DNA of 60,482 bases from an uncultured Candidatus Peribacteria bacterium (lineage in GTDB: Bacteria; Patescibacteriota; Gracilibacteria; Peribacterales; Peribacteraceae). Numbering within the stretch: the first letter of the stretch is position 1; every line of letters starts with the position of its first letter. The notes beneath the pieces were generated by a model. It had not been told where the DNA came from, searched no databases, and saw only the letters and a program-made list of their open reading frames with translations. Positions 5,530-58,101 of this stretch are shown one piece after another. The stretch covers positions 1-60,482 of the forward strand of contig CAYUWH010000003.1 of NCBI GenBank assembly GCA_964448615.1. Direction: 5' to 3'. Made by a program: the position numbers and the translations under genes.

Positions 5530-5620
<91 letters not shown>

Positions 5621-5746: not shown

Positions 5747-5775
5747 TTGACATACCCACACCCTTCATCTTGAAT
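5747..5775 (+). promoter_or_regulatory. sigma70-like promoter of ncRNA unit 1
   Basis: TTGACA (5747-5752), 17-nt spacer, TTGAAT (5770-5775). The unit's first G (5782) lies 7 nt downstream. Confidence 0.7.
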
Positions 5776-5781
5776 CGCCCC

Positions 5782-6082
5782 GATCCAATTGCTTAGTTCT
5801 TTCACGAGAACTCACTCTGCGCTCTTGTAGTGCAGGGTTGACCTCCGATAAATACCATCCGGTGTCCGGATGGAGGAGGTATGGACGGTCGTGAGATCGT
5901 TCAGTCTGCCTGGCTCTTTGCACGGCTGCCTTGGTAGCCAGGGCCCGTCGCGTTGCTCCGTGCCGCAGGCCTAACCAGGCAGCCCTGCAACTTCTCGTTG
6001 CAAAGTTTTTTCCAAAACTTCGCAACGACAAGATTCCACGAATTGGATCATTCCGGGGAGATGCTTCTCCCCGGATTTTTTT
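5782..6082 (+). ncRNA. retron-like structured ncRNA, unit 1
   Basis: 5' GATCCAATT (5782-5790) is complementary to 3' AATTGGATC (6041-6049). Conserved scaffold to about 5908, unit-specific arm 5909-6035, CCACG at 6036-6040. Terminator CCGGGGAG/CTCCCCGG plus a T-run at 6053-6082. Confidence 0.75.
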
Positions 6083-6121
6083 AGTTCAACTAGTTGTTGG
6101 CGCATTCTCACGTACTGGTAT

Positions 6122-6150
6122 TTGACATATTCATGCAATCCGCATTCAAT
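6122..6150 (+). promoter_or_regulatory. sigma70-like promoter of ncRNA unit 2
   Basis: TTGACA (6122-6127), 17-nt spacer, TTCAAT (6145-6150). The unit starts at 6157. Confidence 0.7.
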
Positions 6151-6156
6151 ATCGCC

Positions 6157-6450
6157 GATCCAATTGCTTAGTTCTTTCACGAGAACTCACCCTGCACTCT
6201 TGTAGTGCAGGGCTGACCTTCGCCAAAGACCATCCGGCGTCCGGATGGAGGAGGTATGGACGGTCGTGAGACCGTTCAGTCTTGTTGGCATTCGGAAGGC
6301 ATGCGTTATGTCGTTCCGGCCCTTCGCTTCGCTCAGAGCCGCAACTTAATAACGCAGCCATGCCGACCAAATGCATAAAGAAAACTCGTTTTCTTTATGC
6401 ATTCGGATCCACGAATTGGATCACCCCGGGAGGGCTCGCTCTCCCGGATT
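6157..6450 (+). ncRNA. retron-like structured ncRNA, unit 2
   Basis: 5' GATCCAATT (6157-6165) pairs with AATTGGATC (6414-6422). Scaffold to about 6283, specific arm 6284-6408, CCACG at 6409-6413. GC hairpin CCGGGAG/CTCCCGG at 6426-6447 with only a weak T-run (ATTGT). Confidence 0.75.
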
Positions 6451-6496
6451 GTACGTGCCCAACCACTTGTTGTTGGCAGATTCCATTCTTCGATAT

Positions 6497-6525
6497 TTGA
6501 CATGTCATGATAATCCATCTTCAAT
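6497..6525 (+). promoter_or_regulatory. sigma70-like promoter of ncRNA unit 3
   Basis: TTGACA (6497-6502), 17-nt spacer, TTCAAT (6520-6525). The unit starts at 6532. Confidence 0.7.
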
Positions 6526-6531
6526 ACTCTA

Positions 6532-6818
6532 GATCCAATTGCTTAGTTCTTTCACGAGAACTCACCCTGTACCCATCGTGGTACGGGGTTGACCTTCGCC
6601 AAAGATCATCCGGCGTCCGGATGGAGGAGGTATGGATGACCGCGAGGTTATCCGGTCGGACTGGCTAGCAGGGCTTGTCGCACTTGAGGGTGCCCTCGCT
6701 TCGCTCGAGGCATACCCTCTTCGTACGACGACGCCCTGACAGGCACTGACAAAGCGTTGTCAGTGCCTGTGTACCACGAATTGGATCGCCCCGGGGGAGT
6801 TCTCTCTCCCGGATTTTT
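6532..6818 (+). ncRNA. retron-like structured ncRNA, unit 3
   Basis: 5' GATCCAATT (6532-6540) pairs with AATTGGATC (6779-6787). Scaffold to about 6659, specific arm 6660-6773, CCACG at 6774-6778. Terminator hairpin 6791-6812 plus T5 at 6814-6818, which overlaps the next -35. Confidence 0.75.
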
Positions 6819-6845
6819 GACAAGTACAAAAAATCATCTTTACTG
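6817..6845 (+). promoter_or_regulatory. sigma70-like promoter of ncRNA unit 4
   Basis: TTGACA (6817-6822), 17-nt spacer, TTACTG (6840-6845; a weaker -10). The unit starts at 6851. Confidence 0.55.
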
Positions 6846-6850
6846 CTCTA

Positions 6851-7143
6851 GATCCAATTGCTTAGTTCTTTCACGAGAACTCACCCTGTACCCATCGTGG
6901 TACGGGGTTGACCTTCGCCAAAGATCATCCGGCGTCCGGATGGAGGAGGTATGGATGACCGCGAGGTCTCCAGTCTGCTGTGCTTTGACCTTCGAGCGAC
7001 TACTTTGGGTTCAGCCATTCGCTTCGCTTATGGCTGCCCCGGCGTATCGCCCGAAGCTCACGGCGTCACAATCAATGCTACGCATTCATTGTGACCCAGA
7101 CCCACGAATTGGATCACCCCGGGAGGGCTCGCTCTCCCGGATT
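6851..7143 (+). ncRNA. retron-like structured ncRNA, unit 4
   Basis: 5' GATCCAATT (6851-6859) pairs with AATTGGATC (7107-7115). The first 117 nt are identical to unit 3. Specific arm 6978-7101, CCACG at 7102-7106. The 3' hairpin (7119-7140) is identical to that of unit 2. Confidence 0.75.
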
Positions 7144-7189
7144 GTACGTGCCCAACCACTTGTTGTTGGCAGATTCCATTCTTCGATAT

Positions 7190-7218
7190 TTGACATGTCA
7201 TGATAATCCATCTTCAAT
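7190..7218 (+). promoter_or_regulatory. sigma70-like promoter of ncRNA unit 5
   Basis: TTGACA (7190-7195), 17-nt spacer, TTCAAT (7213-7218). Identical to the unit 3 promoter. The unit starts at 7225. Confidence 0.7.
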
Positions 7219-7224
7219 ACTCTA

Positions 7225-7520
7225 GATCCAATTGCTTAGTTCCTTGGAACTCACTCCGCACACGCAAGTGCTGCGGGGCTGACCTCCGCTTCACAATCAT
7301 CCGGTGTCCGGATGGAGGAGGTATGGACAGTCGTGAGGCTGTCCGGTCTGGGTGGTTCTCGATCACTCAGGTTAATCTCGTTTCGGCCTGTCGCATTCGC
7401 TCCAAGCCGCAACTGAGCTAACATGAGTGACCGACCCTTTTTCCCTGAAATGGGATTTCAGCGAAAAAGGGATCCACGAATTGGATCTCCCCGGGGAGAG
7501 GCATCTCTCCGGATTTTTTT
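7225..7520 (+). ncRNA. retron-like structured ncRNA, unit 5
   Basis: 5' GATCCAATT (7225-7233) pairs with AATTGGATC (7479-7487). This is the most divergent scaffold, with compensatory stem changes. Specific arm 7351-7473, CCACG at 7474-7478. Terminator GGAGAG/CTCTCC plus T7 ends at 7520. Confidence 0.75.
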
Positions 7521-7552
7521 CGACTTTTCCAACGTTCTTCCGGCGACGCATT

Positions 7553-9358
7553 ATGAGTCTTAACAGTATGCCCAGCGAGGAAACCCTTGAGTATTGCTCG
7601 CAATTATTGCAACGGCCGTTTACGGCGCCGTGGGAAGCGAGCGGTGTCCTGCTCAGTATTCTCGAGCAGTTGCGCACACGGCCAGGGGCTCTGTATCGCA
7701 CGCAATATATTGAAAAAGGCAACGGCAAAATGCGCCGAATCGATGAGCCCAACAAAATTTTGAAATTCGTGCAGAAGCAAATTTCGTTGGTGCTGAATCA
7801 TGCATGGGTCGCGCCGGGCGTATGCGGCTTCGTGCTGAACAACAGCGCGCAACAAGGATTGCGCGGCATGATCGACACGATGTACGTGGGAACGGAAGAG
7901 CATCCCGCTCGCGGGCCCATCAAGGCGGTGTACCAAGAAGATATTGAAAACCAGTTCGGCTCTATCACGCGCGATCAAGTGGAAGAGGCGCTGCGCGAGC
8001 ATTTCTTCACGCGCATTTTGCACGATTGGGAGAAGGGGCCGAAACTCCCCAACTTGCAAGTCGGCAGAATCGCCGAAGTGATTGCCGAAGTGTGTTGCTA
8101 CGAAGGACATTTGCCGCAGGGTTCTCCCGCGAGCCCCGTCCTCTCCAACATCGTCTGCACGCGTTTCGATTTCGCGTTGAGACGTTTGCTCGGCAAGCAG
8201 GGAGTGTACGGACGCTATGCTGACGACATGGTGGTGCTCGCGTGCGACAAGCTCGATACGAAATTCCGCGGGAAATTCCGCAACATTCTCAATACGTGCG
8301 GATTCAACGTGAATCGTGAAAAAGGAGAATATGAGGAACACCGGCGAAGGAAGACTGAGGAAGAAAGTTCCGGCGATCCGCGCCAACGTTTTCGCATTTG
8401 GGGAATGGATCTCGTGGTTGATGACGATGCGCAGACAGCATGGTTCCGCCTGCCGAGGAACATGGAGCGCCAATGGGTGGAAGATATCTCCGCAATGCTG
8501 GAGGGTGCCGGCGATTTGCCTCGTGACTCAAAAGAATTTATGAGTGACACGCGCGTATTGGAGGTGCTCGGCAGGCTTGCTTATGCGTTCCAGGTAACAC
8601 GTTGGGGGCATCCCGATCACATCAAGGGGCGCGAATTTCCCGGCCGTTCCGACGAGAGACCGGAGATTACCGGCGCGCATGAATTCCTCCCGAAGGATTT
8701 GGCACGAATCTGGCGGGCGTTCCGCGCCGAATTCGGAGGCAGGTTGCCGCAACGTCACCGACGTTGGTTCCACGATACGGCGCCGCTCTATAGCGCCAAC
8801 AGCACGCGGGTTCCCGTTACCTCCGGGGAGTTTGAAGAACGATTGCACGAATTCGGCGTTGAGAGAGGCTTTGATGAAGCGACATTGATCGCGGAGTTGA
8901 ATCACTATCAACAGCATTTTCAAAGCGATTATCCGCTCGTGGATGCCGATGGCGTCCAGTACCGCGCTGCCGGACAGAGCAATGATTACCCCGATGAAGC
9001 ATTGGCGGAAGCGTCTGAACTCTTTGTCCAGCAGAGTCCGAGCGTGAGCGATACGGAGCGTCTTGAATTGCTGCGCAGAACGCTCGCGTGCTTCAGCGGA
9101 TTCGTTCGCTGTTTATTTGCCGGGCAATTGCAAGGATTCAGCATCAGCGAGCAGCACGACTCATTACTGCCGGTGAACGGCCAGCGCCCGTGGCAGCGCT
9201 TGCTGCAAGAGTGTCGTCGCGCGGGCATCTCCACGCCTGAGCTTGTGCGGTTGTTTGATGCAAGCACGTCTCGCACGCAGTACCGCATTCGTCCGAAAAC
9301 CCTCCCCAAAAAAGTGCATCGTGAACATCTGCACTTGTACGGTTTCGATAACGATTGA
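7553..9358 (+). CDS. reverse transcriptase (retron/UG-like, not assignable to a known class by eye) with long C-terminal extension
   Basis: RT motifs in order: KGNGKMRRIDEP (motif 1), YQEDIENQFGSI (motif A), LPQGSPASPVLSN (motif B, ~8111-8150), RYADDMVVL (motif C, ~8212-8235), GFNVNREKGE (motif D). About 280 aa follow with no recognisable domain. Start set at the first ATG after the unit-5 terminator; the track ORF opens at 7427 inside the ncRNA. Confidence 0.9.
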   Translation: MSLNSMPSEETLEYCSQLLQRPFTAPWEASGVLLSILEQLRTRPGALYRTQYIEKGNGKMRRIDEPNKILKFVQKQISLVLNHAWVAPGVCGFVLNNSAQQGLRGMIDTMYVGTEEHPARGPIKAVYQEDIENQFGSITRDQVEEALREHFFTRILHDWEKGPKLPNLQVGRIAEVIAEVCCYEGHLPQGSPASPVLSNIVCTRFDFALRRLLGKQGVYGRYADDMVVLACDKLDTKFRGKFRNILNTCGFNVNREKGEYEEHRRRKTEEESSGDPRQRFRIWGMDLVVDDDAQTAWFRLPRNMERQWVEDISAMLEGAGDLPRDSKEFMSDTRVLEVLGRLAYAFQVTRWGHPDHIKGREFPGRSDERPEITGAHEFLPKDLARIWRAFRAEFGGRLPQRHRRWFHDTAPLYSANSTRVPVTSGEFEERLHEFGVERGFDEATLIAELNHYQQHFQSDYPLVDADGVQYRAAGQSNDYPDEALAEASELFVQQSPSVSDTERLELLRRTLACFSGFVRCLFAGQLQGFSISEQHDSLLPVNGQRPWQRLLQECRRAGISTPELVRLFDASTSRTQYRIRPKTLPKKVHREHLHLYGFDND

Positions 9359-9385
9359 TCTTCTTCATTTTTTTCTCTTTCTCCC

Positions 9386-12300
9386 ATGTCCAAGAAAGCC
9401 TCTGTCGCCGCCGCTCCGACCGTCGTCACCGACGAGTTGTACGCATTGCTCGAGCGGGATCCCACTGCTGCCATCTTGCAGACGAGTCTTGCGGAAGATG
9501 CCGCGGCGCATCTCGACGATACGTCGGAAAAGCGCATGGCCGTCGAGCCGGAAATCGTGGGAATTCTTCTCGCAGGATTCCGTGCATCCGTGGAGCAATA
9601 CATATCCAGCGAACTCCTCGAGGCGCACCCAGATTTGCAGGATATGAAGGAGAGCATTCTGCAGGGGAGGCGAAAAGTGCGCGGCGACATCATGCGATTA
9701 CTGAGAGAGCACGGCGGGCATTTGCGCAGCGCTTCGCGGGAACAGAGTCGCTTCAATCATGAAGTGACGTACGAACCGGGTAAGGATGTGGAGCCGACAC
9801 TCGCGAACTTCCGGCATTTGCGCGGGTTGCACAAAGACATTGAAGCACGCCGCGATGAGATGGCTGCCACGCTCGGCGGAGCGCAGCGGTCGTTGCGCGC
9901 GAATATTCCGGGCATGGCGGCCTTCTCGCGCTTGATCGTGCAAACTGAAGGTGGTTCCGAGGAGCATCGTCTCAAGACATTGATGCGCCAAATGTGGGGT
10001 GACGAGCGCGTGCAGGCGGAGTGGGTGCGTGCGCAACACGTGGCCTATGCGCAGGCGGCCGAGCGCGGAGACAGAATCATCGAAGGTCCTTCGACGGTGG
10101 TATTGCTCAACCGCATTCATCGCGAAATCAACGTGAACAAAATGCGCGGCTCAACAGGTGTGGCGCTCGTTGGTCCTCCGGGCTGGGGAAAGACCGAAAT
10201 CTTGAAGCACTATTTCGCGGAAGTCGGCATCCACTTGGTCACGGCGGACATGTCGCGCATCAGCAATGCCGCCACGCTCATGGCGCGCCCGGCGTTGCAG
10301 GATGAATCGTTCCGGAGTCTTGATGATGTCATCGATGCGATTGAGACGATGACGCATCGCGACTTCCTCCGTTTCTATACGCAACATCCGGAGTTGTGTC
10401 AGCAGGCAGGCATTGATTGGGACCAGATCAAAAATCCGCGCGCAACGCAGCGTCTTGCCAATGCCCGGCAAGCACTGGCGGCGCCGCTTAAAGATGCGCG
10501 CGGGAACCGCATCGCCGAAGCATTGCAGACCCACGTTCGTCAGCGCGGCGTCGTCTTCGGCCTCCTTGCCAAAACCTTGCTGAGACCCAACAGCGCGTTC
10601 GGCTTCGAAGAATTCACGTACCTCGACATTGCCAACGCGCCGTTCGTCAATGGTCTCATGACGACCATTCCCGCAACGGATGAAGAAGCGGGCTTGCCTC
10701 CGGATGAACGCACGACTCCCGGCGATCTGAAGGGGTGGTTCCAGGAACCGATCAGCGGCATCTGGTTCCGCGTACCCAAGACCTTCTCGATCAACGGCAC
10801 GGCGAACGTGGGAGCGGCGTACCGCAACCAGGGAATTTCCGCGGCGTGGGAGAGCCGCTTCGGCGGAGGATTGATCACGATCCCGTTGCGTGATCAGCGC
10901 AAAAAAGAAACAGCGCCGATCGATGACGGCGTCGAATTCCAGGAAACGCCGGAAGGCAATCAATTCAAGGAGTATTTGGAGACCCTCGTCTGGCCGCGCC
11001 TCTCCGATTCTACGACAGGCCGTTTCGAATTGGATGACGACACCGCGTACCGTCTCGACTTCCTCGTCCGCCGCGTGTTGCCGCATATCATCTCCACGCT
11101 GCGCCGTCGCAATCGCAAAATGCCGAACCTCTCGATTCGCACGCTGCAGGATCTTTGCAATCGTTTGCTTCCTCGATCCCAAGACGAAGACTTGAAGGGC
11201 GTGAATTTGGATACCGCGATTTGGGAATCCATCGTTGAACCGCTGGCTGCCGATATCGATCAATACGGGGAAACAGTCGAAGTGGTGCTGGCATGGTTGA
11301 TGGGCTCCGGCGTGCTGCGCAACGTCGGTACGCGCGTGAAGGGGTTGTTGTCGGGTCCGGTGCATCAGCGTTTGCAAAAAACGATCGATCAGCTTCGTAC
11401 TTCCGGCTCGGGGAATACCGAGCAGGCGGCGGAAACATTCGAGCAATTCCAAGATACGCAGTACACCAGGGCCGAAGGAGTGCATGCGGGTTCTTGCCAT
11501 GCGTGCGGCGTGACGGCATGTCCGGTTCACGGCAAAGACACCGAGGAATATCTCCATCAACTCGCGCAACTGGAGCGCGCAGCGGCGATGGGTATGACGC
11601 CGGAGATCGCACGCGCCATCAGCAAGCGTCAGGCTGAATTGTTACGCGCTCAGGAATGGGGAATGCTGCTCGAAGTGTATTTGGAAACGAACGGTGCAAA
11701 GCAGTTGGAGAAAATTCCTGCGGGGCTGGAAGAATATTTGCAGAGCTTGGTGACGGCATGTACCGAAGATCCTGAACAGGCTCCCGAGCACATTCAAATT
11801 TTGCAGCGAGCTTCCGCCAATGCGTTGCCCGTCAAAGTTGATCAGCAGTGGATGTGCACGATGATGGATTACTGGGGTAAGGTGCTCGCAAATACTGAAT
11901 TCGTAGATGTTCACGAGCGTCTTAAGCAGCTGCAAGATGTACCGGGAGCTTCTGCGGAGCAGGACCGTGTGCGCATTGGAAAAGATATGCAACGTATTGT
12001 GCGCGACCGTATCGCGCCGGCCTTGCGTGTCATGAGGACGTTGCAAGAATGGTCCAAGCAAACGCGTGATCTCAACATGGATGAATGTATGGTGTTGACC
12101 GATATGGTCGATTACCTGCCTGCCCAGTCGTTGATGGTGGCTCGCGAGTTGACGGCGGAGGAAGAGCATAAAGATGTGGTGAAAACCGCGGTGGACCGTT
12201 CAGTGAAAAGCCGCAAGAAAGAGCTGCAAGCGGAATTTAAAGCGATGCGCGACAATCTCGGTGGCGGTGCCAATCAAGAGGCGGCGCAAGGGCGCGTCAT

Positions 12301-12616
12301 TGCCCGTCCGCCTGCCGAAATCGCACAGATGCCCCAACTCGTTCAGCAGTATGGCGCCGTGCAGCGTCTGTTGCGCGAAGCGGGGGCACTCGCGAAATTG
12401 CATGCTATTCCCACGGAAGAGCTCACCGAACTCGTATCACTTGCGTCCGGCTTGCTGCGTGAAGGATTCGGGGGCGAAAAAGAATCCGACGTGTGCATTC
12501 CTTTTGTGCGCTGCATGCGCACGATCGCGGATGTTCGCGGCATGAGCGTCAATGATGTGCTGCAATATTTCTTCGAACCCAAAGTGGTGCCGTATCCTCC
12601 CATTCGTCAATTCTAA
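9386..12616 (+). CDS. large P-loop NTPase, AAA+ (MoxR/AAA_5-like) core with long helical extensions
   Basis: 1076 aa. Walker A GVALVGPPGWGKTEILK (~10160-10200). Candidate Walker B AFGFEEF about 130 aa downstream. The rest is not recognisable. Starts 27 nt after the RT stop. Confidence 0.6.
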   Translation: MSKKASVAAAPTVVTDELYALLERDPTAAILQTSLAEDAAAHLDDTSEKRMAVEPEIVGILLAGFRASVEQYISSELLEAHPDLQDMKESILQGRRKVRGDIMRLLREHGGHLRSASREQSRFNHEVTYEPGKDVEPTLANFRHLRGLHKDIEARRDEMAATLGGAQRSLRANIPGMAAFSRLIVQTEGGSEEHRLKTLMRQMWGDERVQAEWVRAQHVAYAQAAERGDRIIEGPSTVVLLNRIHREINVNKMRGSTGVALVGPPGWGKTEILKHYFAEVGIHLVTADMSRISNAATLMARPALQDESFRSLDDVIDAIETMTHRDFLRFYTQHPELCQQAGIDWDQIKNPRATQRLANARQALAAPLKDARGNRIAEALQTHVRQRGVVFGLLAKTLLRPNSAFGFEEFTYLDIANAPFVNGLMTTIPATDEEAGLPPDERTTPGDLKGWFQEPISGIWFRVPKTFSINGTANVGAAYRNQGISAAWESRFGGGLITIPLRDQRKKETAPIDDGVEFQETPEGNQFKEYLETLVWPRLSDSTTGRFELDDDTAYRLDFLVRRVLPHIISTLRRRNRKMPNLSIRTLQDLCNRLLPRSQDEDLKGVNLDTAIWESIVEPLAADIDQYGETVEVVLAWLMGSGVLRNVGTRVKGLLSGPVHQRLQKTIDQLRTSGSGNTEQAAETFEQFQDTQYTRAEGVHAGSCHACGVTACPVHGKDTEEYLHQLAQLERAAAMGMTPEIARAISKRQAELLRAQEWGMLLEVYLETNGAKQLEKIPAGLEEYLQSLVTACTEDPEQAPEHIQILQRASANALPVKVDQQWMCTMMDYWGKVLANTEFVDVHERLKQLQDVPGASAEQDRVRIGKDMQRIVRDRIAPALRVMRTLQEWSKQTRDLNMDECMVLTDMVDYLPAQSLMVARELTAEEEHKDVVKTAVDRSVKSRKKELQAEFKAMRDNLGGGANQEAAQGRVIARPPAEIAQMPQLVQQYGAVQRLLREAGALAKLHAIPTEELTELVSLASGLLREGFGGEKESDVCIPFVRCMRTIADVRGMSVNDVLQYFFEPKVVPYPPIRQF

Positions 12617-12619
12617 ACG

Positions 12620-14572
12620 ATGTCCGAATCCTCTCCTGAACGGCCGCGCAATCCAACCCGTCTCCCGGAGATTCTCAGTGATCTGCATATCGAATTGTTG
12701 CGCCCGATTTGCGAAGGGGTGGACAGTGCGGAATTGCGCCCGTCCGATCCCAATACGGAGAGCAGCGGCTATGCCACGATCATCTCGCAGCCGGACAAAG
12801 ATGCACCGCAGCGGCTCGTCATCTATTACCATCCCGTGACGGTGCACACGATCGGCGAGGCGCGCGTGTTCGCGATCATGCTGCATGAACTGGGGCATCA
12901 TCATCCTGAAGTTGAGCGGTTCCAGCATTCGTGTTTGCGCTTTGCCAAGGCGGCGGAAGGAGAGCAATTTTTACCTCCGAACCTGGCTGACAAAGCGAAG
13001 CTCGTGCATACGTGTTTCAATATCCTCGCAGACGTATTGCTTGAAACCATTTGCTGCCGCAATCTGCCTGCGGAAAAAATGATGCGCAGCGCGCTTTCCT
13101 ATAATCGTGCGCATCTCTTTTTTGAGCACATGGATCCGGACGGGACGCGTTTGCAGGCATACGAAGAGTCGGATCGTCAGCTGTTTCCGTGGTCGGAAGA
13201 GGAATTTCGCAAGATGGAAGCGTGGTCCCAGCTTATGCAGGCATCGCTCGTCGCGCCATTTTTTCAATGGCCGGACGAGGCGTGGATGGCTCCGTCGCTT
13301 GCCAAGCGCATGCCGGAAGTGCGGCAGCTGTTCAGTGAGCTCCGCAGCCCCGCGACCCGCGGCGAGATGAAAGGACATTTGTTCCTCAAATACGTCGGTA
13401 TCGTCGGAGATTTGATTCGAGAGGAGATGCACAAGCTTTCCGCCGCCGGCGGCGATACGACCCAAAAATCGGGCGAACTCAGCGATCGTGTCGGGGATAC
13501 TTGTGATCGCGCGGATCGCATCACCAAGCCCGGAGAGGCGGAAGGACAGCCTTCAACGGAACAGAAAGAGCCTCCGCCCAGAGATCTGACTGAAGATATC
13601 GGTGCACAGCGCAAACGCATGGATGACTTGATGCAAAGCCAGAATGCGGAAGAGGAAGAATATATCAAACAGAAAGCGGCCGAGCTTGGCGTTAACGTAA
13701 AAACGTATCGTCTCTATCTCGATATTTGTAAAGAGTGGGAGGATGTCATCAAAGAGTTCACCAGGGCGCTCTCGCAATTCGTGTTGCGTGATTTTCAAGT
13801 GGAACCGCGTACGGGATTTTCCGAGGGCTACATGATCACGCCGGGCCGGGAATTTGAAACGTACATGCGTATCCGAATGGGGGAGGAAGACCCCGACACG
13901 ATGGAGGGATACCAGACGTTCCGCAATCCGCGCGTGTTGCAGCTTTACCCGTGCATCGACACGTCCGGAAGCATGAAGCACCGTATCGAAGAAACGTTGG
14001 CGTATTACACCGTTATCGCGAAGTCCTGCTTTAATATTCAACAGGAATTGAAGCACAACGCATCGAACTACAACATTCCTTTCAGTTGGCCGCCCCCCCT
14101 TTCGCTCGAAGTCGTGACGTTCTCCGACACGCCCGAAGTGGTCGTGCCGTTTCAAGAAACGATGGACGAGAAGACGCTTCTCAAAGGCTTCGAGAGCATC
14201 ATTCATGAGACGAGCGTGGGGCAAGGCACCAACGACAGCGGAGCGCTGAAATTCGTGTATAAAGAAATGGAAAAGAACGATGTGAACGCGCTCAAAATTC
14301 TCATGATGCTGACGGACGGCGTGGGGAATCACGACCTTCTGGAGCCGATCATCCGGCAAATCGAAGAGGATCCGGGGATTTATTTCCTTGTGTCCGGAGT
14401 GGGCTACGGGTCGGGTGCGGTGCAGAAAGCGTATCAAGATCGCTTCCGACCCACGCAGGATTTTCATGTGTTTGCCATGGAGCATGAAACGGTGAAAGAG
14501 GCGCTGCTCGAGACTCTCGGGCTCATCAAGCAATGGACTGCGGAATTCTACGCCCGCAATACACCGAGCTGA
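12620..14572 (+). CDS. zincin-like (HExxH) + von Willebrand factor A domain protein
   Basis: 650 aa. N-terminal IMLHELGHHH (HExxH, ~12884-12898). C-terminal vWA with MIDAS-like DTSGSM (~13958-13975) and MMLTDGVGN. Starts 3 nt after the NTPase stop. The layout resembles the metallopeptidase-N + VWA-like proteins that partner MoxR ATPases. Confidence 0.65.
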   Translation: MSESSPERPRNPTRLPEILSDLHIELLRPICEGVDSAELRPSDPNTESSGYATIISQPDKDAPQRLVIYYHPVTVHTIGEARVFAIMLHELGHHHPEVERFQHSCLRFAKAAEGEQFLPPNLADKAKLVHTCFNILADVLLETICCRNLPAEKMMRSALSYNRAHLFFEHMDPDGTRLQAYEESDRQLFPWSEEEFRKMEAWSQLMQASLVAPFFQWPDEAWMAPSLAKRMPEVRQLFSELRSPATRGEMKGHLFLKYVGIVGDLIREEMHKLSAAGGDTTQKSGELSDRVGDTCDRADRITKPGEAEGQPSTEQKEPPPRDLTEDIGAQRKRMDDLMQSQNAEEEEYIKQKAAELGVNVKTYRLYLDICKEWEDVIKEFTRALSQFVLRDFQVEPRTGFSEGYMITPGREFETYMRIRMGEEDPDTMEGYQTFRNPRVLQLYPCIDTSGSMKHRIEETLAYYTVIAKSCFNIQQELKHNASNYNIPFSWPPPLSLEVVTFSDTPEVVVPFQETMDEKTLLKGFESIIHETSVGQGTNDSGALKFVYKEMEKNDVNALKILMMLTDGVGNHDLLEPIIRQIEEDPGIYFLVSGVGYGSGAVQKAYQDRFRPTQDFHVFAMEHETVKEALLETLGLIKQWTAEFYARNTPS

Positions 14573-16502: not shown

Positions 16503-17078
16503 TCAGTGCTTCCGTTGCCAATGCACAAACCGCGTTGCGAGCGATCCTTTGGGATCGAGATGTTGCAGCAGACGCAATCCTGCTTCTCGCACTCTGTCTG
16601 CGGTTGTAATTTCTTCCGGATTTTCCCCAAGGATGTCCGCTGCGGAACGGGGTGTGACATGCAAACCGTAGGCGCGGAAATAGGTAGTCGCCCGCTGCAC
16701 ATTTTTCCGGCCTGCCACCAAAATCAGATGATCAGTCGGGAGATGTTTTTCTCGAAGAAGCGTCACGACATTGCGCACGTTCTCCGCCGTATCGGTCGAT
16801 TCACTTTCAGTGAGAATATGTGCGGCCGGAATATTCCAGGGCGCGCGGCACACATACTCTCTCATCGCCTCCGCTTCGGACGGATACTGGGCGCCCGCGG
16901 TTCTGCCTCCGCTGAAGATGAGCAGAGAATCTTGTTCTTGCTGCCAGAGAGTGGCAGCGGCTGTCGCACGTTTGGCTGTGTGTGAGCCGATCCACTCAAA
17001 TGGTTCTTTGGCATTTGGTCTGTGTTCCAATCCTGCGCCGAAACAAATAATGACGATCATGCATTCTGAGCATAACAT
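16503..17078 (-). CDS. YdcF/DUF218 family protein
   Basis: LLIFSGGRTAGAQYPSEAEAMREY and STDTAENVRNV are typical DUF218 (ElyC/SanA/YdcF) motifs. Confidence 0.7.
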   Translation of the reverse strand: MLCSECMIVIICFGAGLEHRPNAKEPFEWIGSHTAKRATAAATLWQQEQDSLLIFSGGRTAGAQYPSEAEAMREYVCRAPWNIPAAHILTESESTDTAENVRNVVTLLREKHLPTDHLILVAGRKNVQRATTYFRAYGLHVTPRSAADILGENPEEITTADRVREAGLRLLQHLDPKGSLATRFVHWQRKH

Positions 17079-17161
17079 CGATCCTACTTTGCATATACTT
17101 ATAAAATGTTTTACATTACACGTAGAAGACGTTCTTTCGAACCGTTCACGGGGGAGATGAC

Positions 17162-17683
17162 ATGATCGAAGTCCGAAACGGCCGGTCCGTGCCTACGGTC
17201 ATTCAGGCAGGAGACACCATGATCTATTACTGGCGAGATCATCTGGTGAAGTTCTGCCGCGATGGCTGTGCTCTGGAGTACGGCAGCCACGATGACAAGC
17301 ATCCGCTCGAACTCGAGACCATGCAGCAGTTCGTGCAGCTCTGTGCGCTGGTGGCCGGCACGCGCGAGCTGGGATTCGGAGAGATGGATATCAGTCTCTC
17401 GTCGGATCTGTGGCGCTGCACCTTTACGGCGTCCATGCTGAGTCCCGAGGTGCTGGCACTGCAAGTGGGTGACATCATCCGCTTCTCGCCGGGGGGCGTT
17501 ATCGAAGTGTATCGCAGCCCCAAGATCTACACGCTGCGCGTGACGGAAGGCATGCCAGGATCTGCGGAGAACTGTCAGTTTCTCGCGAAGATCCTCGCGG
17601 AGGCCAATCTTCTCGATCTGGGGGATTGTAAGATTTCCCTGGAAGAGAAGTCGTTTTCGTTCGAGTTCCTGCCGCGTCTGTAA
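17162..17683 (+). CDS. hypothetical protein
   Basis: 173-aa ORF preceded by GGGGGAGA 4 nt (TGAC) before the ATG. Followed by an intrinsic terminator. No family recognised. Confidence 0.55.
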   Translation: MIEVRNGRSVPTVIQAGDTMIYYWRDHLVKFCRDGCALEYGSHDDKHPLELETMQQFVQLCALVAGTRELGFGEMDISLSSDLWRCTFTASMLSPEVLALQVGDIIRFSPGGVIEVYRSPKIYTLRVTEGMPGSAENCQFLAKILAEANLLDLGDCKISLEEKSFSFEFLPRL

Positions 17684-17701
17684 GCGGCACACGTCTCATT
17701 A

Positions 17702-17732
17702 TCCTGTCTGCCTTAGGTGGACAGGGTTTTTT
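17702..17732 (+). terminator. intrinsic terminator
   Basis: CCTGTC...GACAGG hairpin followed by T6 (17727-17732). Confidence 0.7.
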
Positions 17733-17741
17733 GCAATCGAA

Positions 17742-17816
17742 TGGAGCCGCCCATGGGAATTGAACCCACGACCCCGTCCTTACCATGGACGTGCTCTACC
17801 ACTGAGCTAGGGCGGC
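17742..17816 (-). tRNA. tRNA-Thr (anticodon GGT), CCA encoded
   Basis: The reverse complement reads GCCGCCCTAGCTCAGTGGTAGAGCACGTCCATGGTAAGGACGGGGTCGTGGGTTCAATTCCCATGGGCGGCTCCA. Anticodon loop ATGGTAA, giving GGT. Confidence 0.9.
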
Positions 17817-17872
17817 ATGTTTCGTTTATGGAAAGGCAGTCTAAATGGGCGATCTTCCGGCTACAAGCCATT

Positions 17873-18289
17873 TTATTCCTCTTCAGCGGATTCCAACGTT
17901 TCTCGCCAAAGTTGTAAAGGCTTGCCTTCTAACGTGCGCAATGCGTTTTTGAGCGTATGAAGCGCGAGCAGAGCGCACTTGATGCGGCGCGGTCCGATGG
18001 GAACGCCGAGCAGCGCAAGGATGTGATCTCGGTCGAGTGCGGCCGCTTGCGCCACGGTCAGGCCCAGCAGTCCTTCCGCGAGCATCGACATTCCGGCTTG
18101 GCTGATGGCACACCCTTCTCCTTCCCAGGCGACTTCCTGGATCACCTCGTTTTCCATGCGCAGAGACAATGCGAGCGCATCGCCGCAGCTCGGATTTTTT
18201 TCGCCGTGCGTCACGGTTGCCTCCGCAATGGTGCCTTTATGGCGCGGAGTGCGATAGTGATCGAGGATGTTCTCGGCGTAGAGATCCAT
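17873..18289 (-). CDS. sufU: Fe-S cluster assembly scaffold SufU/IscU-like
   Basis: ILDHYRTPRHKG, NPSCGD, EGEGCAISQA and the ALLALHTLKNAL motif. Start set at the internal Met (MDLYAENIL), because the upstream extension runs into the word repeat. Confidence 0.85.
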   Translation of the reverse strand: MDLYAENILDHYRTPRHKGTIAEATVTHGEKNPSCGDALALSLRMENEVIQEVAWEGEGCAISQAGMSMLAEGLLGLTVAQAAALDRDHILALLGVPIGPRRIKCALLALHTLKNALRTLEGKPLQLWRETLESAEEE

Positions 18290-56842: not shown

Positions 56843-57106
56843 TTATAATTGGTATGCATCCTTGCGATGTTTTACTGCAAGGACAAACAGGATCGAGATG
56901 CGATCATTTTTCACATCGACGAGAATACGATAGTCACCCACACGAAAACGATGACTGCCGAAATCGGAATTTTTCAGGGGTTTTGCAAAGGAAAGAGGAT
57001 CTTCTTGGGCTACAAACCATTGCATTTTCTCAACGATTCTACGAGCAAGCTTTGGTGGAAGCTTCGTTAAGCTTTTTACGGCAGGCTCGGCAAATACCAA
57101 TTTCAT
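56843..57106 (-). CDS. type II toxin, RelE/ParE family
   Basis: 87 aa. FRVGDYRILVDVKNDRISILFVLAVKHRKDAY is the typical RelE/ParE C-terminal pattern. Overlaps the upstream antitoxin by 4 nt. Confidence 0.75.
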   Translation of the reverse strand: MKLVFAEPAVKSLTKLPPKLARRIVEKMQWFVAQEDPLSFAKPLKNSDFGSHRFRVGDYRILVDVKNDRISILFVLAVKHRKDAYQL

Positions 57107-57348
57107 TGTTTAATCATATCAAGCACTTCCTCGGGCGAATAGACTTTTCCTGCTTTGATCGCTTTGCGAGCCTCGGCAACTTCTTTTGCCAAGGATTCCA
57201 GAGAATCTCCATTCGTGACTGGTGTCACATGAGCCACGGGTTCGGAATGTCTCATAATCACAAAATGCACATTCTTTTCCTGCGCCTCTTTCAGGAATTT
57301 AGTCATGTTTTCACGGAATGCGCGGATGCTGACGGTTTTGGTGGTCAT
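57103..57348 (-). CDS. type II antitoxin (Phd/YefM-like)
   Basis: MTTKTVSIRAFRENMTKFLKEAQEKNVHFVIMRHSEPVAHVTPV is a Phd/YefM-type N-terminus. Start set at the internal Met. Confidence 0.65.
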   Translation of the reverse strand: MTTKTVSIRAFRENMTKFLKEAQEKNVHFVIMRHSEPVAHVTPVTNGDSLESLAKEVAEARKAIKAGKVYSPEEVLDMIKQ

Positions 57349-57450
57349 GGCAAAAAGAAAGAATGCATAAATAGTGTACACAAATGTGATCACAAATGCA
57401 ATAGATTGATTTGGAGGGGGAGAAGAGGAATGTGAGACAGTAATTTGAGT

Positions 57451-58101
57451 TTATAACTTAATAGTCCGAAGGTGAGGTATTTTTACCGTACCGCCATGAC
57501 TTTGTTTTCCATTGTTATGCGAAAAAGAGAACATGCCATTTTTTGTTTTATTGCTCTTTGCACAGCGAAAACGAGCTGGTTGCTGACAGCGAGGACATAG
57601 GAAGGCGACACCTAAACGATCTGCAATTTCACTGATGAGAGCAGTGAGATTTTTATTCTCTTCCAATGATCCATAATCGTTACCCTCTATTGTTCTTAAC
57701 AATTCGGCGAATGCCTCTTTGGATGGTTCGAGTACCTGTTCAACCGAAATAAGAAATTCTTGTAATTGTTCAAAGTGCGATGCCATCACTTTTTCTCGTT
57801 GAGTCTTGCCCGTCAATAACTCCTCAATCGACAACGAAAGTGCTTTGGCCAAAGCGAGTAGGGTGGAGAGACGAGGGTCTTCATCGAGGCTTTCAGCCAA
57901 AATGCGACTGACTGCCGATCTTGCATCGTTTATGGCAAAACCCATACGCACGCCAATTTCTTCCAGGGAGAGCCCCGAATATTCCACGGCCTCGCGGAGA
58001 TGGGTTTTGATTGCCCTAAAATTGGAGGATTCTGATTGGTCTACTACCTGTGATGGATCTTCTGGGTTGGACATCGCCTCCACTATATGTGAATTTGACA
58101 T
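57451..58101 (-). CDS. XRE-family HTH protein with C-terminal Cys-containing domain
   Basis: LSLEEIGVRMGFAINDARSAVSRILA...LSTLLALAKALSLSIEELL is an HTH_XRE pattern. CPRCQ...RFRC lies near the C-terminus. AT-rich. Confidence 0.6.
   Translation of the reverse strand: MSNSHIVEAMSNPEDPSQVVDQSESSNFRAIKTHLREAVEYSGLSLEEIGVRMGFAINDARSAVSRILAESLDEDPRLSTLLALAKALSLSIEELLTGKTQREKVMASHFEQLQEFLISVEQVLEPSKEAFAELLRTIEGNDYGSLEENKNLTALISEIADRLGVAFLCPRCQQPARFRCAKSNKTKNGMFSFSHNNGKQSHGGTVKIPHLRTIKL

Follow-up and report, generated by a model that had tools for sequence, protein, structure and literature searches.

Positions 1 to 60,482 of contig CAYUWH010000003.1, a 60,482-nt stretch from an uncultured Candidatus Peribacteria bacterium (hereafter the window), include a gene for a 601-aa reverse transcriptase (RT), five tandem units of a non-coding RNA (ncRNA) upstream of it, and two partner genes downstream. 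Judged from its sequence, the RT is a member of a small and discrete clade, which is closest to the RTs of retrons yet lies outside retron types I-XIII. A retron is commonly portrayed as a unit of a single RT with its ncRNA and its effector, and multiplexed 'retron arrays' have, to our knowledge, so far been engineered constructs. What is new here is the divergent RT clade, its C-terminal domain, the partner proteins, and the natural multi-cassette ncRNA arrays in a retron-like system. With moderate confidence, we interpret the whole package as a multiplexed retron-like system, in which the tail of the RT is coupled to a module of an AAA+-like protein and a protein with a von Willebrand factor A (vWA) domain. 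The synthesis of retron-like complementary DNA (cDNA) from the ncRNA units appears to be a more secure part of this reading than the adaptor role of the tail or a role in defence. Other loci and proteins of the same RT family are referred to below by L and P numbers, respectively.

Structure and variation of the ncRNA array

The array is located between a tRNA-Ser gene and the RT gene. Its extent and the spans of its units, measured from the a1 arm to the a2 arm, are as follows:

5748..7520, + strand: array of five tandem ncRNA units of ~370 nt, recognised from repeats, alignment, consensus structure, terminators, and a1/a2 covariation
5783-6050, + strand: ncRNA unit 1, a1-to-a2 span
6158-6423, + strand: ncRNA unit 2, a1-to-a2 span
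6533-6788, + strand: ncRNA unit 3, a1-to-a2 span
6852-7116, + strand: ncRNA unit 4, a1-to-a2 span
7226-7488, + strand: ncRNA unit 5, a1-to-a2 span

Each unit of the window contains an invariant promoter-like box (TTTGACA), the a1 arm AUCCAAUU, the a2 arm AAUUGGAU, and a terminal GC hairpin. In units 1, 3, and 5, a T-run comes after this hairpin, with terminator-like sites at 6052-6075, 6791-6812, and 7491-7512. In the consensus fold, the ends of the unit are paired (AUCCAAUU with AAUUGGAU); the fold also comprises conserved 5' hairpins P1-P4, a variable middle part, and a 3' hairpin. Compensatory changes occur in hairpins P2 and P4. A unit-specific hairpin of 13-19 bp is positioned directly 5' of a2, that is, in an msd-like position.

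The a1/a2 stem comprises 8 bp and is present in 5/5 units of the window. End-pairing with different sequences was also found in L008, L009, L012, and L004. Among 12 units from 5 loci, compensatory changes were detected in 6/8 pairs of this stem and no pair was broken. The corresponding covariation score was 0.81 versus 0.27 in shuffles, and sliding the register reduced the pairing to 58% or less. The numbers of anchored a1/a2 pairs per array were 5, 6, and 2, as compared to ~0.15-0.2 in shuffles. The sequences a1-UUGCU and ACGAA-a2 are invariant in 12/12 units, so that two Gs are opposed directly above the stem. All predicted cDNAs begin with 5'-CGTGG, and each forms a stable hairpin of its own (z-scores of -4.4 to -6.7); none of 200 shuffles was as stable. 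Thus, the units share with retron ncRNAs their location on the same strand as the RT gene, the terminal a1/a2 inverted repeats, the two conserved opposed Gs (one of them being the putative branch point), the conserved msr-like 5' hairpins, and the stable msd-like stem-loop beside a2.

Tandem arrays are a trait of the RT family. The number of units per locus is five in the window, three in L007, six in L008, four in L009, two in L012, and at least three in L011. Retrons possess a single ncRNA, whereas two to six tandem units with differing msd-like hairpins occur here, and the hosts are candidate phyla radiation (CPR) bacteria. In L011, which originates from the patescibacterial lineage UBA4473, the array is found at 16977-17900 with a period of 266-275 nt, downstream of the vWA gene, and the RT gene is separated by only 84 nt from the preceding gene. 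The L007 array (8900-9965, 3 units) is GC-rich and unlike the other arrays in sequence, and a run of N is present inside the array of L008 (8992-9050).

Segments of non-adjacent units in the window display 98-99% identity (6406-6552 versus 7099-7245, and 6516-6648 versus 6835-6967), while the 3' hairpin parts of these units differ. This suggests a recent duplication of cassettes or recombination within the array. Short-read assemblies probably break in such tandem arrays, and the array sizes in public metagenome-assembled genomes (MAGs) are probably under-counted.

The Rfam search at gathering threshold identified only two tRNAs in the window and no known family in the array. The variable parts of the units produced only chance matches of 10-14 nt elsewhere in the 60-kb window. 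Mutagenic homing as known for diversity-generating retroelements (DGRs) was rejected: no pair of template and variable repeats was found, and nothing similar to the variable parts of the units occurs in the rest of the window.

A reverse transcriptase clade close to retrons

The RT gene and its RT-specific regions are the following:

7553..9358, + strand: reverse transcriptase gene, 601 aa; open reading frame (ORF) with translation, RVT_1 match, and retron RTs as best matches
7709..8329, + strand: RT fingers/palm, residues 53-259; Pfam span, alignment with typed retron RTs, and conservation within the family
8387..8608, + strand: RT region 7 (RT7) and thumb, residues ~279-352, with RIWGMDLVV, FRLP, and helices ending in LGRLAYAFQVTRWG

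The ORF spans 7427..9358 on the + strand, and translation from the ATG at 7553 yields the 601-aa protein. The next ATG, at 7568, is the start in the public gene call (P0001, 596 aa); either of these two codons may be the true start. The GTG at 7427 was rejected as the start of the RT because the gene would then overlap the a2 arm and the terminator hairpin of ncRNA unit 5 (7479-7520). The strings quoted in the original prediction, namely LPQGSPASPVLSN, RYADDMVV, CGFVLNNSAQQGL, RIWGMDLVV, and EDISAMLEGAG, are all present in the 601-aa translation.

The sole Pfam match of the protein is RVT_1 (residues 53-259; 46 bits, cut-off 29.6). The fingers/palm region contains motif A (EDIENQFGSI), motif B (LPQGSPASPVLSN), and motif C (RYADD), as well as two insertions specific to the family, one before motif A and the other, RILHxWxKGPxL, between motifs A and B. 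The alignment with typed retron RTs stops at residue ~352, at the end of the thumb, whose helices are modelled with a predicted local distance difference test (pLDDT) value of >90 in the model of the C-terminal region. In 16 family members, D130, Y222, A223, and D224 are invariant and D225 is nearly so; further catalytic or template-binding residues that are invariant or nearly invariant include F135, S137, Q189, G190, P192, S194, P195, and K257. Since the catalytic residues are conserved in this way, the RT is presumably catalytically intact and the enzyme active.

Two sequence hallmarks of retron RTs are NAXXH in region X between RT2 and RT3, with H as the most conserved residue, and VTG in region Y/RT7, with G as the most conserved residue (PMC7736814). 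The RT family was aligned with six typed retron RTs with regard to these motifs. The typed retrons display [N/A]AxxH after the GF motif, with H in all six, and V[T/H]G or LTG in RT7. The RT family has G[LV]Rx[M] at the first position (GLRxM in the window RT), with the H being lost, and [IV]WG at the second (VLG in one short form), where G alone is retained. This G284 is invariant in the alignment with typed retrons and nearly invariant among the 16 family members. The alignment thus bears out the earlier claim that NAxxH is lacking and that RIWGMDLVV stands in place of VTG.

In the comparison with PADLOC models, all matches among the best 25 of 73 were retron RT models. The models of types IX, III-A, XI, XII, II-A, and I-C scored ~97-109 bits; none stood out, and type IX was the best with 109 bits. 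The NCBIfam scores were 104 bits for retron_St85 (cut-off 235), 89 for Ec67, 51 for the group II model, 45 for Drt2, and 35 for Drt3a. Similarly, the PDB profile search, with matches at profile positions 39-277 only, yielded 88 bits for Ec86, 82 for Ec67, 78 for Kva2, 47 for group II, and 32 for DRT2. For calibration, seven ordinary retron-type RTs were scored on the PADLOC type models; they reached 256-460 bits on their own type and 170-330 bits on other types. By contrast, four members of the RT family reached 92-116 bits on the best PADLOC model, and the family in general scores ~80-115 bits on typed retron models. With a full-length profile built from 16 members, family members scored 656-732 bits, and nothing else exceeded 153 bits.

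A neighbour-joining (NJ) tree of the RT domain, comprising 20 members of the family and 70 further retron-type RTs, was constructed with 50 bootstraps. The RT family was monophyletic in 50/50 bootstraps, and its stem, with a length of 0.45, was the longest internal branch of the tree (median 0.06). The RT of L007 (P0124) grouped with the window RT and P0002. No nesting in a characterised clade with the same layout and a single ncRNA was seen in this tree of retron-type RTs. The window RT shows neither the score strength on an own type nor a type-specific effector or fusion as defined for retron types I-XIII (Mestre 2020/PADLOC), and none of the 13 types has this tail or an AAA/vWA/zincin effector listed. 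The original prediction of 'at best a divergent retron relative' agrees well with these data, in view of the best models being those of retrons, the score of ~100 bits as opposed to 170-330 among typed retrons, the absence of NAXXH, and the retention of only the G of VTG.

It is extremely improbable that the gene encodes a group II intron or group-II-like maturase RT or a DGR RT, or that it is an inactive relic whose ORF is an annotation or fusion artefact. The weak match to the group II RT/maturase model TIGR04416 (51 bits, cut-off 300) is the point in favour of this explanation. Group II intron origin was rejected on the basis of this score together with the absence of an Rfam intron from the window and of an X or endonuclease domain from the protein. 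As the original prediction had stated, a maturase or endonuclease signature is missing; Pfam detects no maturase, endonuclease, or other domain besides RVT_1. The fused architecture of RT and tail recurs in 14 independent clusters from different assemblies, which speaks against an artefact, and the invariance of the catalytic residues speaks against a relic.

The RT family is rare and, in the seven genome loci to which its members could be assigned, confined to CPR bacteria. The taxonomic survey covered one-genome-per-species GTDB contigs, where family members were detected only in Candidatus Peribacteria (L007, L008, and L012), Peregrinibacteria (L009), Gracilibacteria (L010 and L013), and an unclassified Patescibacteria MAG (L011). 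One further locus, L051, of marine origin, was revealed by the metagenome scan. A phage or viral origin was rejected, since searches of IMG/VR and GenBank phages retrieved no family member but only generic RT-domain matches. The gracilibacterial L013 encodes an intact RT, of 452 aa, only under genetic code 25. P0134, a short form of 416 aa, carries W at the family-invariant G (YWRYADD, AQWAPTSP); it probably comes from a genome with UGA=Gly (code 25) that was translated with a different code. The contigs of L001, L002, L003, L006, L043, and L044 start only 50-270 nt upstream of the RT.

C-terminal extension and partner proteins

The region C-terminal to the thumb is divided into two parts:

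8609..8782, + strand: proximal extension, residues ~353-410, with LPxxLxxxWxxFxxxFxxxLPxxHxxWF; common to the short-form relatives
8783..9355, + strand: distal extension, residues ~411-601; only in long-form RTs with AAA and vWA partner genes

The original prediction described a C-terminal region of ~280 aa in which no domain could be named. The latter part of this statement holds: Pfam gave no match in the C-terminal half of the window RT and nothing consistent in any of 16 tails, and the PDB sequence profile named no domain for this region. Its length, however, has to be reduced to ~250 aa (353-601), since residues ~296-352 still belong to the thumb. Typed retrons lack a domain of this kind.

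Among 1.84 billion representative proteins, 18 were retrieved with a tail profile covering residues 296-601. Fourteen of them are RT fusions matching over essentially the whole length, including 13 proteins of 569-630 aa and one, P0122 (474 aa), without the RT N-terminus. The remaining four (P0132-P0135) are shorter, with 209-416 aa, and match only profile positions ~2-100. Accordingly, no stand-alone tail homologue was present among these 18 proteins. Invariant positions are distributed along the whole length of the tail in the family alignment.

The AlphaFold2 model of the C-terminal region, obtained from a 16-sequence alignment, has a mean pLDDT of 86.4 and displays the thumb helices, a beta-hairpin, and about six more helices. 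The window-specific insertion at 358-368 and the tail ending, Lx[LF]PG[FY], are disordered in this model. A full-length model from 5 sequences, with a pLDDT of 51, was too poor for use. Foldseek comparison of the tail model gave no match, the best E values being 0.5 in PDB and 0.28 in BFVD, which is in line with the earlier statement that no motif could be named in this region. As far as can be judged from the model, the tail is a real, well-folded, mostly helical domain without known relatives in the databases searched. Its distal part includes the beta-hairpin, about six helices, an acidic loop, and a basic linker, and ends in the conserved Lx[LF]PG[FY], represented by LHLYGF in the window RT. 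Protein priming from this conserved C-terminal tail was considered and set aside, since the aromatic residue conserved there is in most cases Phe and lacks a hydroxyl.

The two genes downstream of the RT gene are:

9386..12616, + strand: partner gene 1, divergent AAA+-like P-loop protein of 1076 aa; weak match to Pfam AAA and seven-member alignment
12620..14572, + strand: partner gene 2, 650 aa, zincin-like region and vWA domain; Pfam VWA and conserved motifs

Every long-form RT with available downstream sequence is followed by two genes on the same strand, which code for proteins of 1006-1076 aa and 645-666 aa. The full operon with AAA and vWA genes is present in seven long-form loci (the window, L001, L003, L007, L009, L011, and L012), and a partial operon with the AAA gene directly downstream of the RT in L004, L008, and the contig of P0002. 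The accessory genes would be co-transcribed with the RT, in keeping with the usual tripartite logic of retrons. Three short-form RTs (L013, L043, and L044) have neither the distal tail nor the AAA and vWA genes. Because these short forms are dispersed among the long forms in the NJ tree, the distal tail and the partner genes seem to have been lost jointly more than once. This apparent joint loss is the main evidence that the distal tail serves the partners; most likely, the distal ~190 aa act as an adaptor, which couples the complex of RT, RNA, and DNA to the two partner proteins.

As an alternative, the tail may be an additional nucleic-acid-binding or oligomerisation module for handling several msr-msd RNAs, with only an indirect link to the AAA and vWA proteins. 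We consider this unlikely, although lysine-rich linkers and tails occur in many tail homologues and known retron RTs recognise the msr via their C-terminal region Y (PMC7736814). Also, the proximal LPxxLxxxWxxF...WF is retained in short forms without partners, so that at least the proximal part of the extension would serve the RT itself. The distal ~190 aa, however, are missing in exactly the three relatives without AAA and vWA genes, and this part carries acidic as well as basic loops. Among the short forms, two of the contigs start at the RT and no repeats are seen in L013.

In the seven-member alignment, partner 1 shows a Walker A motif (GPPGWGKT), the motifs hhhh[N/D/E]EF and TGN, an invariant CxxCx4CPxHG, and a C-terminal PLPPxRx[YF]. 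The CxxCx4CPxHG motif is zinc-knuckle-like. The PDB profile of partner 1 gave P-loop matches to dynein AAA/Msp1 only (E ~0.01-0.1). Both the RT, with Lx[LF]PG[FY] after a basic linker, and the AAA-like protein, with PLPPxRx[YF]-COOH, possess short conserved C-termini with aromatic residues that resemble docking peptides.

Partner 2 combines an N-terminal zincin-like motif, HELGHH...NxxxDxxLE, with a C-terminal vWA domain containing the DxSxS motif of a metal ion-dependent adhesion site (MIDAS). The vWA domain was recognised by Pfam VWA_2 (36.1 bits, cut-off 27) and VWA (34.8 bits, cut-off 23.8); no Pfam match was obtained for the N-terminal ~430 aa (window 12620-13900). The invariant residues are H89, E90, G92, H93, H94, N134, D138, E142, D447, S449, and S451. 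The N-terminal region of this protein is a possible protease effector. When both partners were compared with PDB by sequence and by profile, only P-loop-level and integrin vWA matches resulted.

Couples of MoxR ATPases and vWA proteins have been described as thresholding modules in conflict systems, and some of them are connected with diversity generators that depend on an RT (Kaur, Burroughs, Iyer & Aravind 2020, PMC7159879). Among RT systems, DGRs are the only ones for which a link to such couples has been described (PMC7159879). The locus examined here resembles them in the adjacency of a P-loop AAA-like gene and a vWA (MIDAS) gene beside an RT-based element. Regarding membership in this group, the vWA domain with its DxSxS motif scores above the Pfam cut-offs, whereas the ATPase shows only a weak, P-loop-level match to AAA and, with its 1076 aa, is too divergent to show that it belongs to MoxR. 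Further differences concern the RT, which is of the DGR type there and retron-like here, and the N-terminal HExxH region of the vWA protein.

Possible mode of action and competing explanations

From the features listed above, we infer cDNA synthesis, its mode of priming, the coupling of the tail to the partners, and a role in defence, in the following form. Each of the five units would be transcribed from its own promoter, and the unit RNA would fold so that a1 and a2 pair at its ends. Starting from the conserved G atop the stem by retron-type 2'-OH priming, the RT would then copy the unit-specific hairpin beside a2. The outcome would be a small repertoire of multicopy single-stranded DNAs (msDNAs) with differing hairpins, each beginning with 5'-CGTGG. 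The distal ~190 aa of the tail would tie the complex of RT, RNA, and DNA to the AAA+-like NTPase and the protein with the zincin motif and vWA domain. If characterised retrons are a guide, the AAA/vWA module may be released or activated once phage factors disturb the msDNA complexes during infection, with the AAA-like and zincin/vWA proteins serving as the read-out or effector.

We propose tentatively, as a possibility of some weight, that the system is a natural 'retron array', i.e., one RT serving tandem, independently promoted msr-msd cassettes that differ in their msd hairpins, undergo turnover by duplication, loss, and recombination, and produce a panel of msDNA sensors or decoys, which is read via the tail by an AAA+/vWA/zincin machine. 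If this is the case, this defence architecture has arisen independently of the arrays of phage UG27 RTs and is the first retron-type system described in CPR bacteria. Literature searches on retrons together with vWA, MoxR, or CPR revealed no account of this system. With two to six different template cassettes per RT, the family would be a natural example of msDNA repertoires, and RT-based immunity would be extended to the ultra-small CPR bacteria, in which few defence systems have been characterised. The new tail domain of the RT family and its putative effector module, composed of the AAA-like and zincin/vWA proteins, are likewise not listed for the known retron types. The family also shows that an RT can be paired with a retron-shaped ncRNA in the absence of NAXXH and VTG, and 2'-OH priming by an RT without these two motifs becomes a directly testable question. 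In addition, the units may offer compact, orthogonal template scaffolds for multiplex production of single-stranded DNA.

Several observations weigh against the interpretation of the package as a multiplexed retron-like system. The absence of NAXXH, a motif that is tied to initiation or catalysis of retrons in the literature, means that priming could differ. The NJ tree holds retron-type RTs only and therefore shows the separation of the family from them but not whether it is a sister group of retrons or branches elsewhere. The 12 units of the covariation analysis were chosen with a pairing filter, so that their 100% pairing is partly given by construction. In L007, GAACGAAG/CTTCGTTC may be the a1/a2 equivalent, but the arms were not identified with confidence. 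The co-occurrence of tail and partner genes is no proof of physical contact, and nucleic-acid binding or oligomerisation are possible instead. Among the partners, the identity of partner 1 is weak (Pfam AAA with E 8.6e-4, below the cut-off), and a motif is the sole basis of the zincin reading of partner 2. Finally, the neighbouring genes are of housekeeping type, including pheT, tRNA-Ser, an RF-1-like gene, and NUDIX, and no obvious defence island is seen around the locus.

Regarding the arrays, the closest analogue is UG27, a phage-encoded RT of class 2 of the unknown group (UG)/Abi RTs; it is accompanied by two accessory proteins, and short cDNA hairpins are templated by its variable arrays of ~150-nt ncRNAs (bioRxiv 10.64898/2026.09.22.753630; PMC9226505). 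The two systems share the combination of an RT, two accessory proteins, and tandem ncRNAs with a copy number that varies between loci; the hairpin is copied into a short cDNA in UG27 and is predicted to be copied here. The system may, therefore, function in a UG27-like way, as a class 2 UG or defence-associated RT (DRT), without retron-type branched priming and with the AAA and vWA proteins being needed for synthesis rather than acting as effectors. The probability of this appears low. It would be consistent with the reported layout of UG27, in which the array is conserved in structure and diverse in sequence and gives rise to cDNA hairpins of 50-100 nt, with the report that deletion of either accessory ORF abolishes cDNA (bioRxiv 10.64898/2026.09.22.753630), and with the absence of the retron NAXXH motif from the window RT.

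The retron models, however, score more than two-fold higher, in bits, than the DRT models given above, which assigns the RT to another lineage in a comparison of hidden Markov model scores that included no UG27 sequence or model. The active site is YADD here, whereas YSDD is reported for UG27. The units of this family comprise 180-270 nt and are closed by a terminal a1/a2 stem with opposed Gs; those of UG27 comprise ~150 nt and carry AUCN7UANAG/UUYA motifs, of which AUCN7UANAG, an internal-loop motif, does not occur in the array. In the accessory proteins of UG27, domains are not detectable; here, a vWA domain is clear in one partner and a P-loop is present in the other. Also, UG27 is known from gut phages, in contrast to the chromosomal location of the present system in CPR bacteria, and, as noted, searches of IMG/VR and GenBank phages gave no member of the RT family. 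Taken together with UG27, the multiplexed retron-like system points to arrays of ncRNAs as a solution that recurs in RTs of the defence type.

According to another explanation, the system is not antiviral but performs a vertically inherited cellular function of episymbiotic bacteria, such as regulation by msDNA decoys or assembly driven by the AAA and vWA proteins. MoxR-type AAA/vWA pairs are often assembly chaperones, and the housekeeping neighbours would fit such a function. The same applies to the lack of att-like duplications of the adjacent tRNA-Ser and to the confinement of the RT family to one related group of CPR lineages. Nevertheless, we regard a purely cellular role as improbable. 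The RT family is rare and patchy, with 18 clusters in 1.84 billion representative proteins, and the repeated loss of tail and partner genes as well as the turnover of array cassettes are typical of accessory, conflict-driven genes. Moreover, phage defence is the role of all characterised retron systems, and conflict systems are a further recurrent setting of AAA/vWA pairs (PMC7159879).

The tRNA-Ser(GGA) gene is located at 5530-5619, directly upstream of the ncRNA array. Integration of the locus as an island at this tRNA gene was examined and rejected, because no duplicated tRNA 3' end is present elsewhere in the window. The G+C content, calculated in 1-kb bins, is about 0.50-0.60 in most of the window, with lower values in bins 1-1000 (0.42) and 57001-58000 (0.44).

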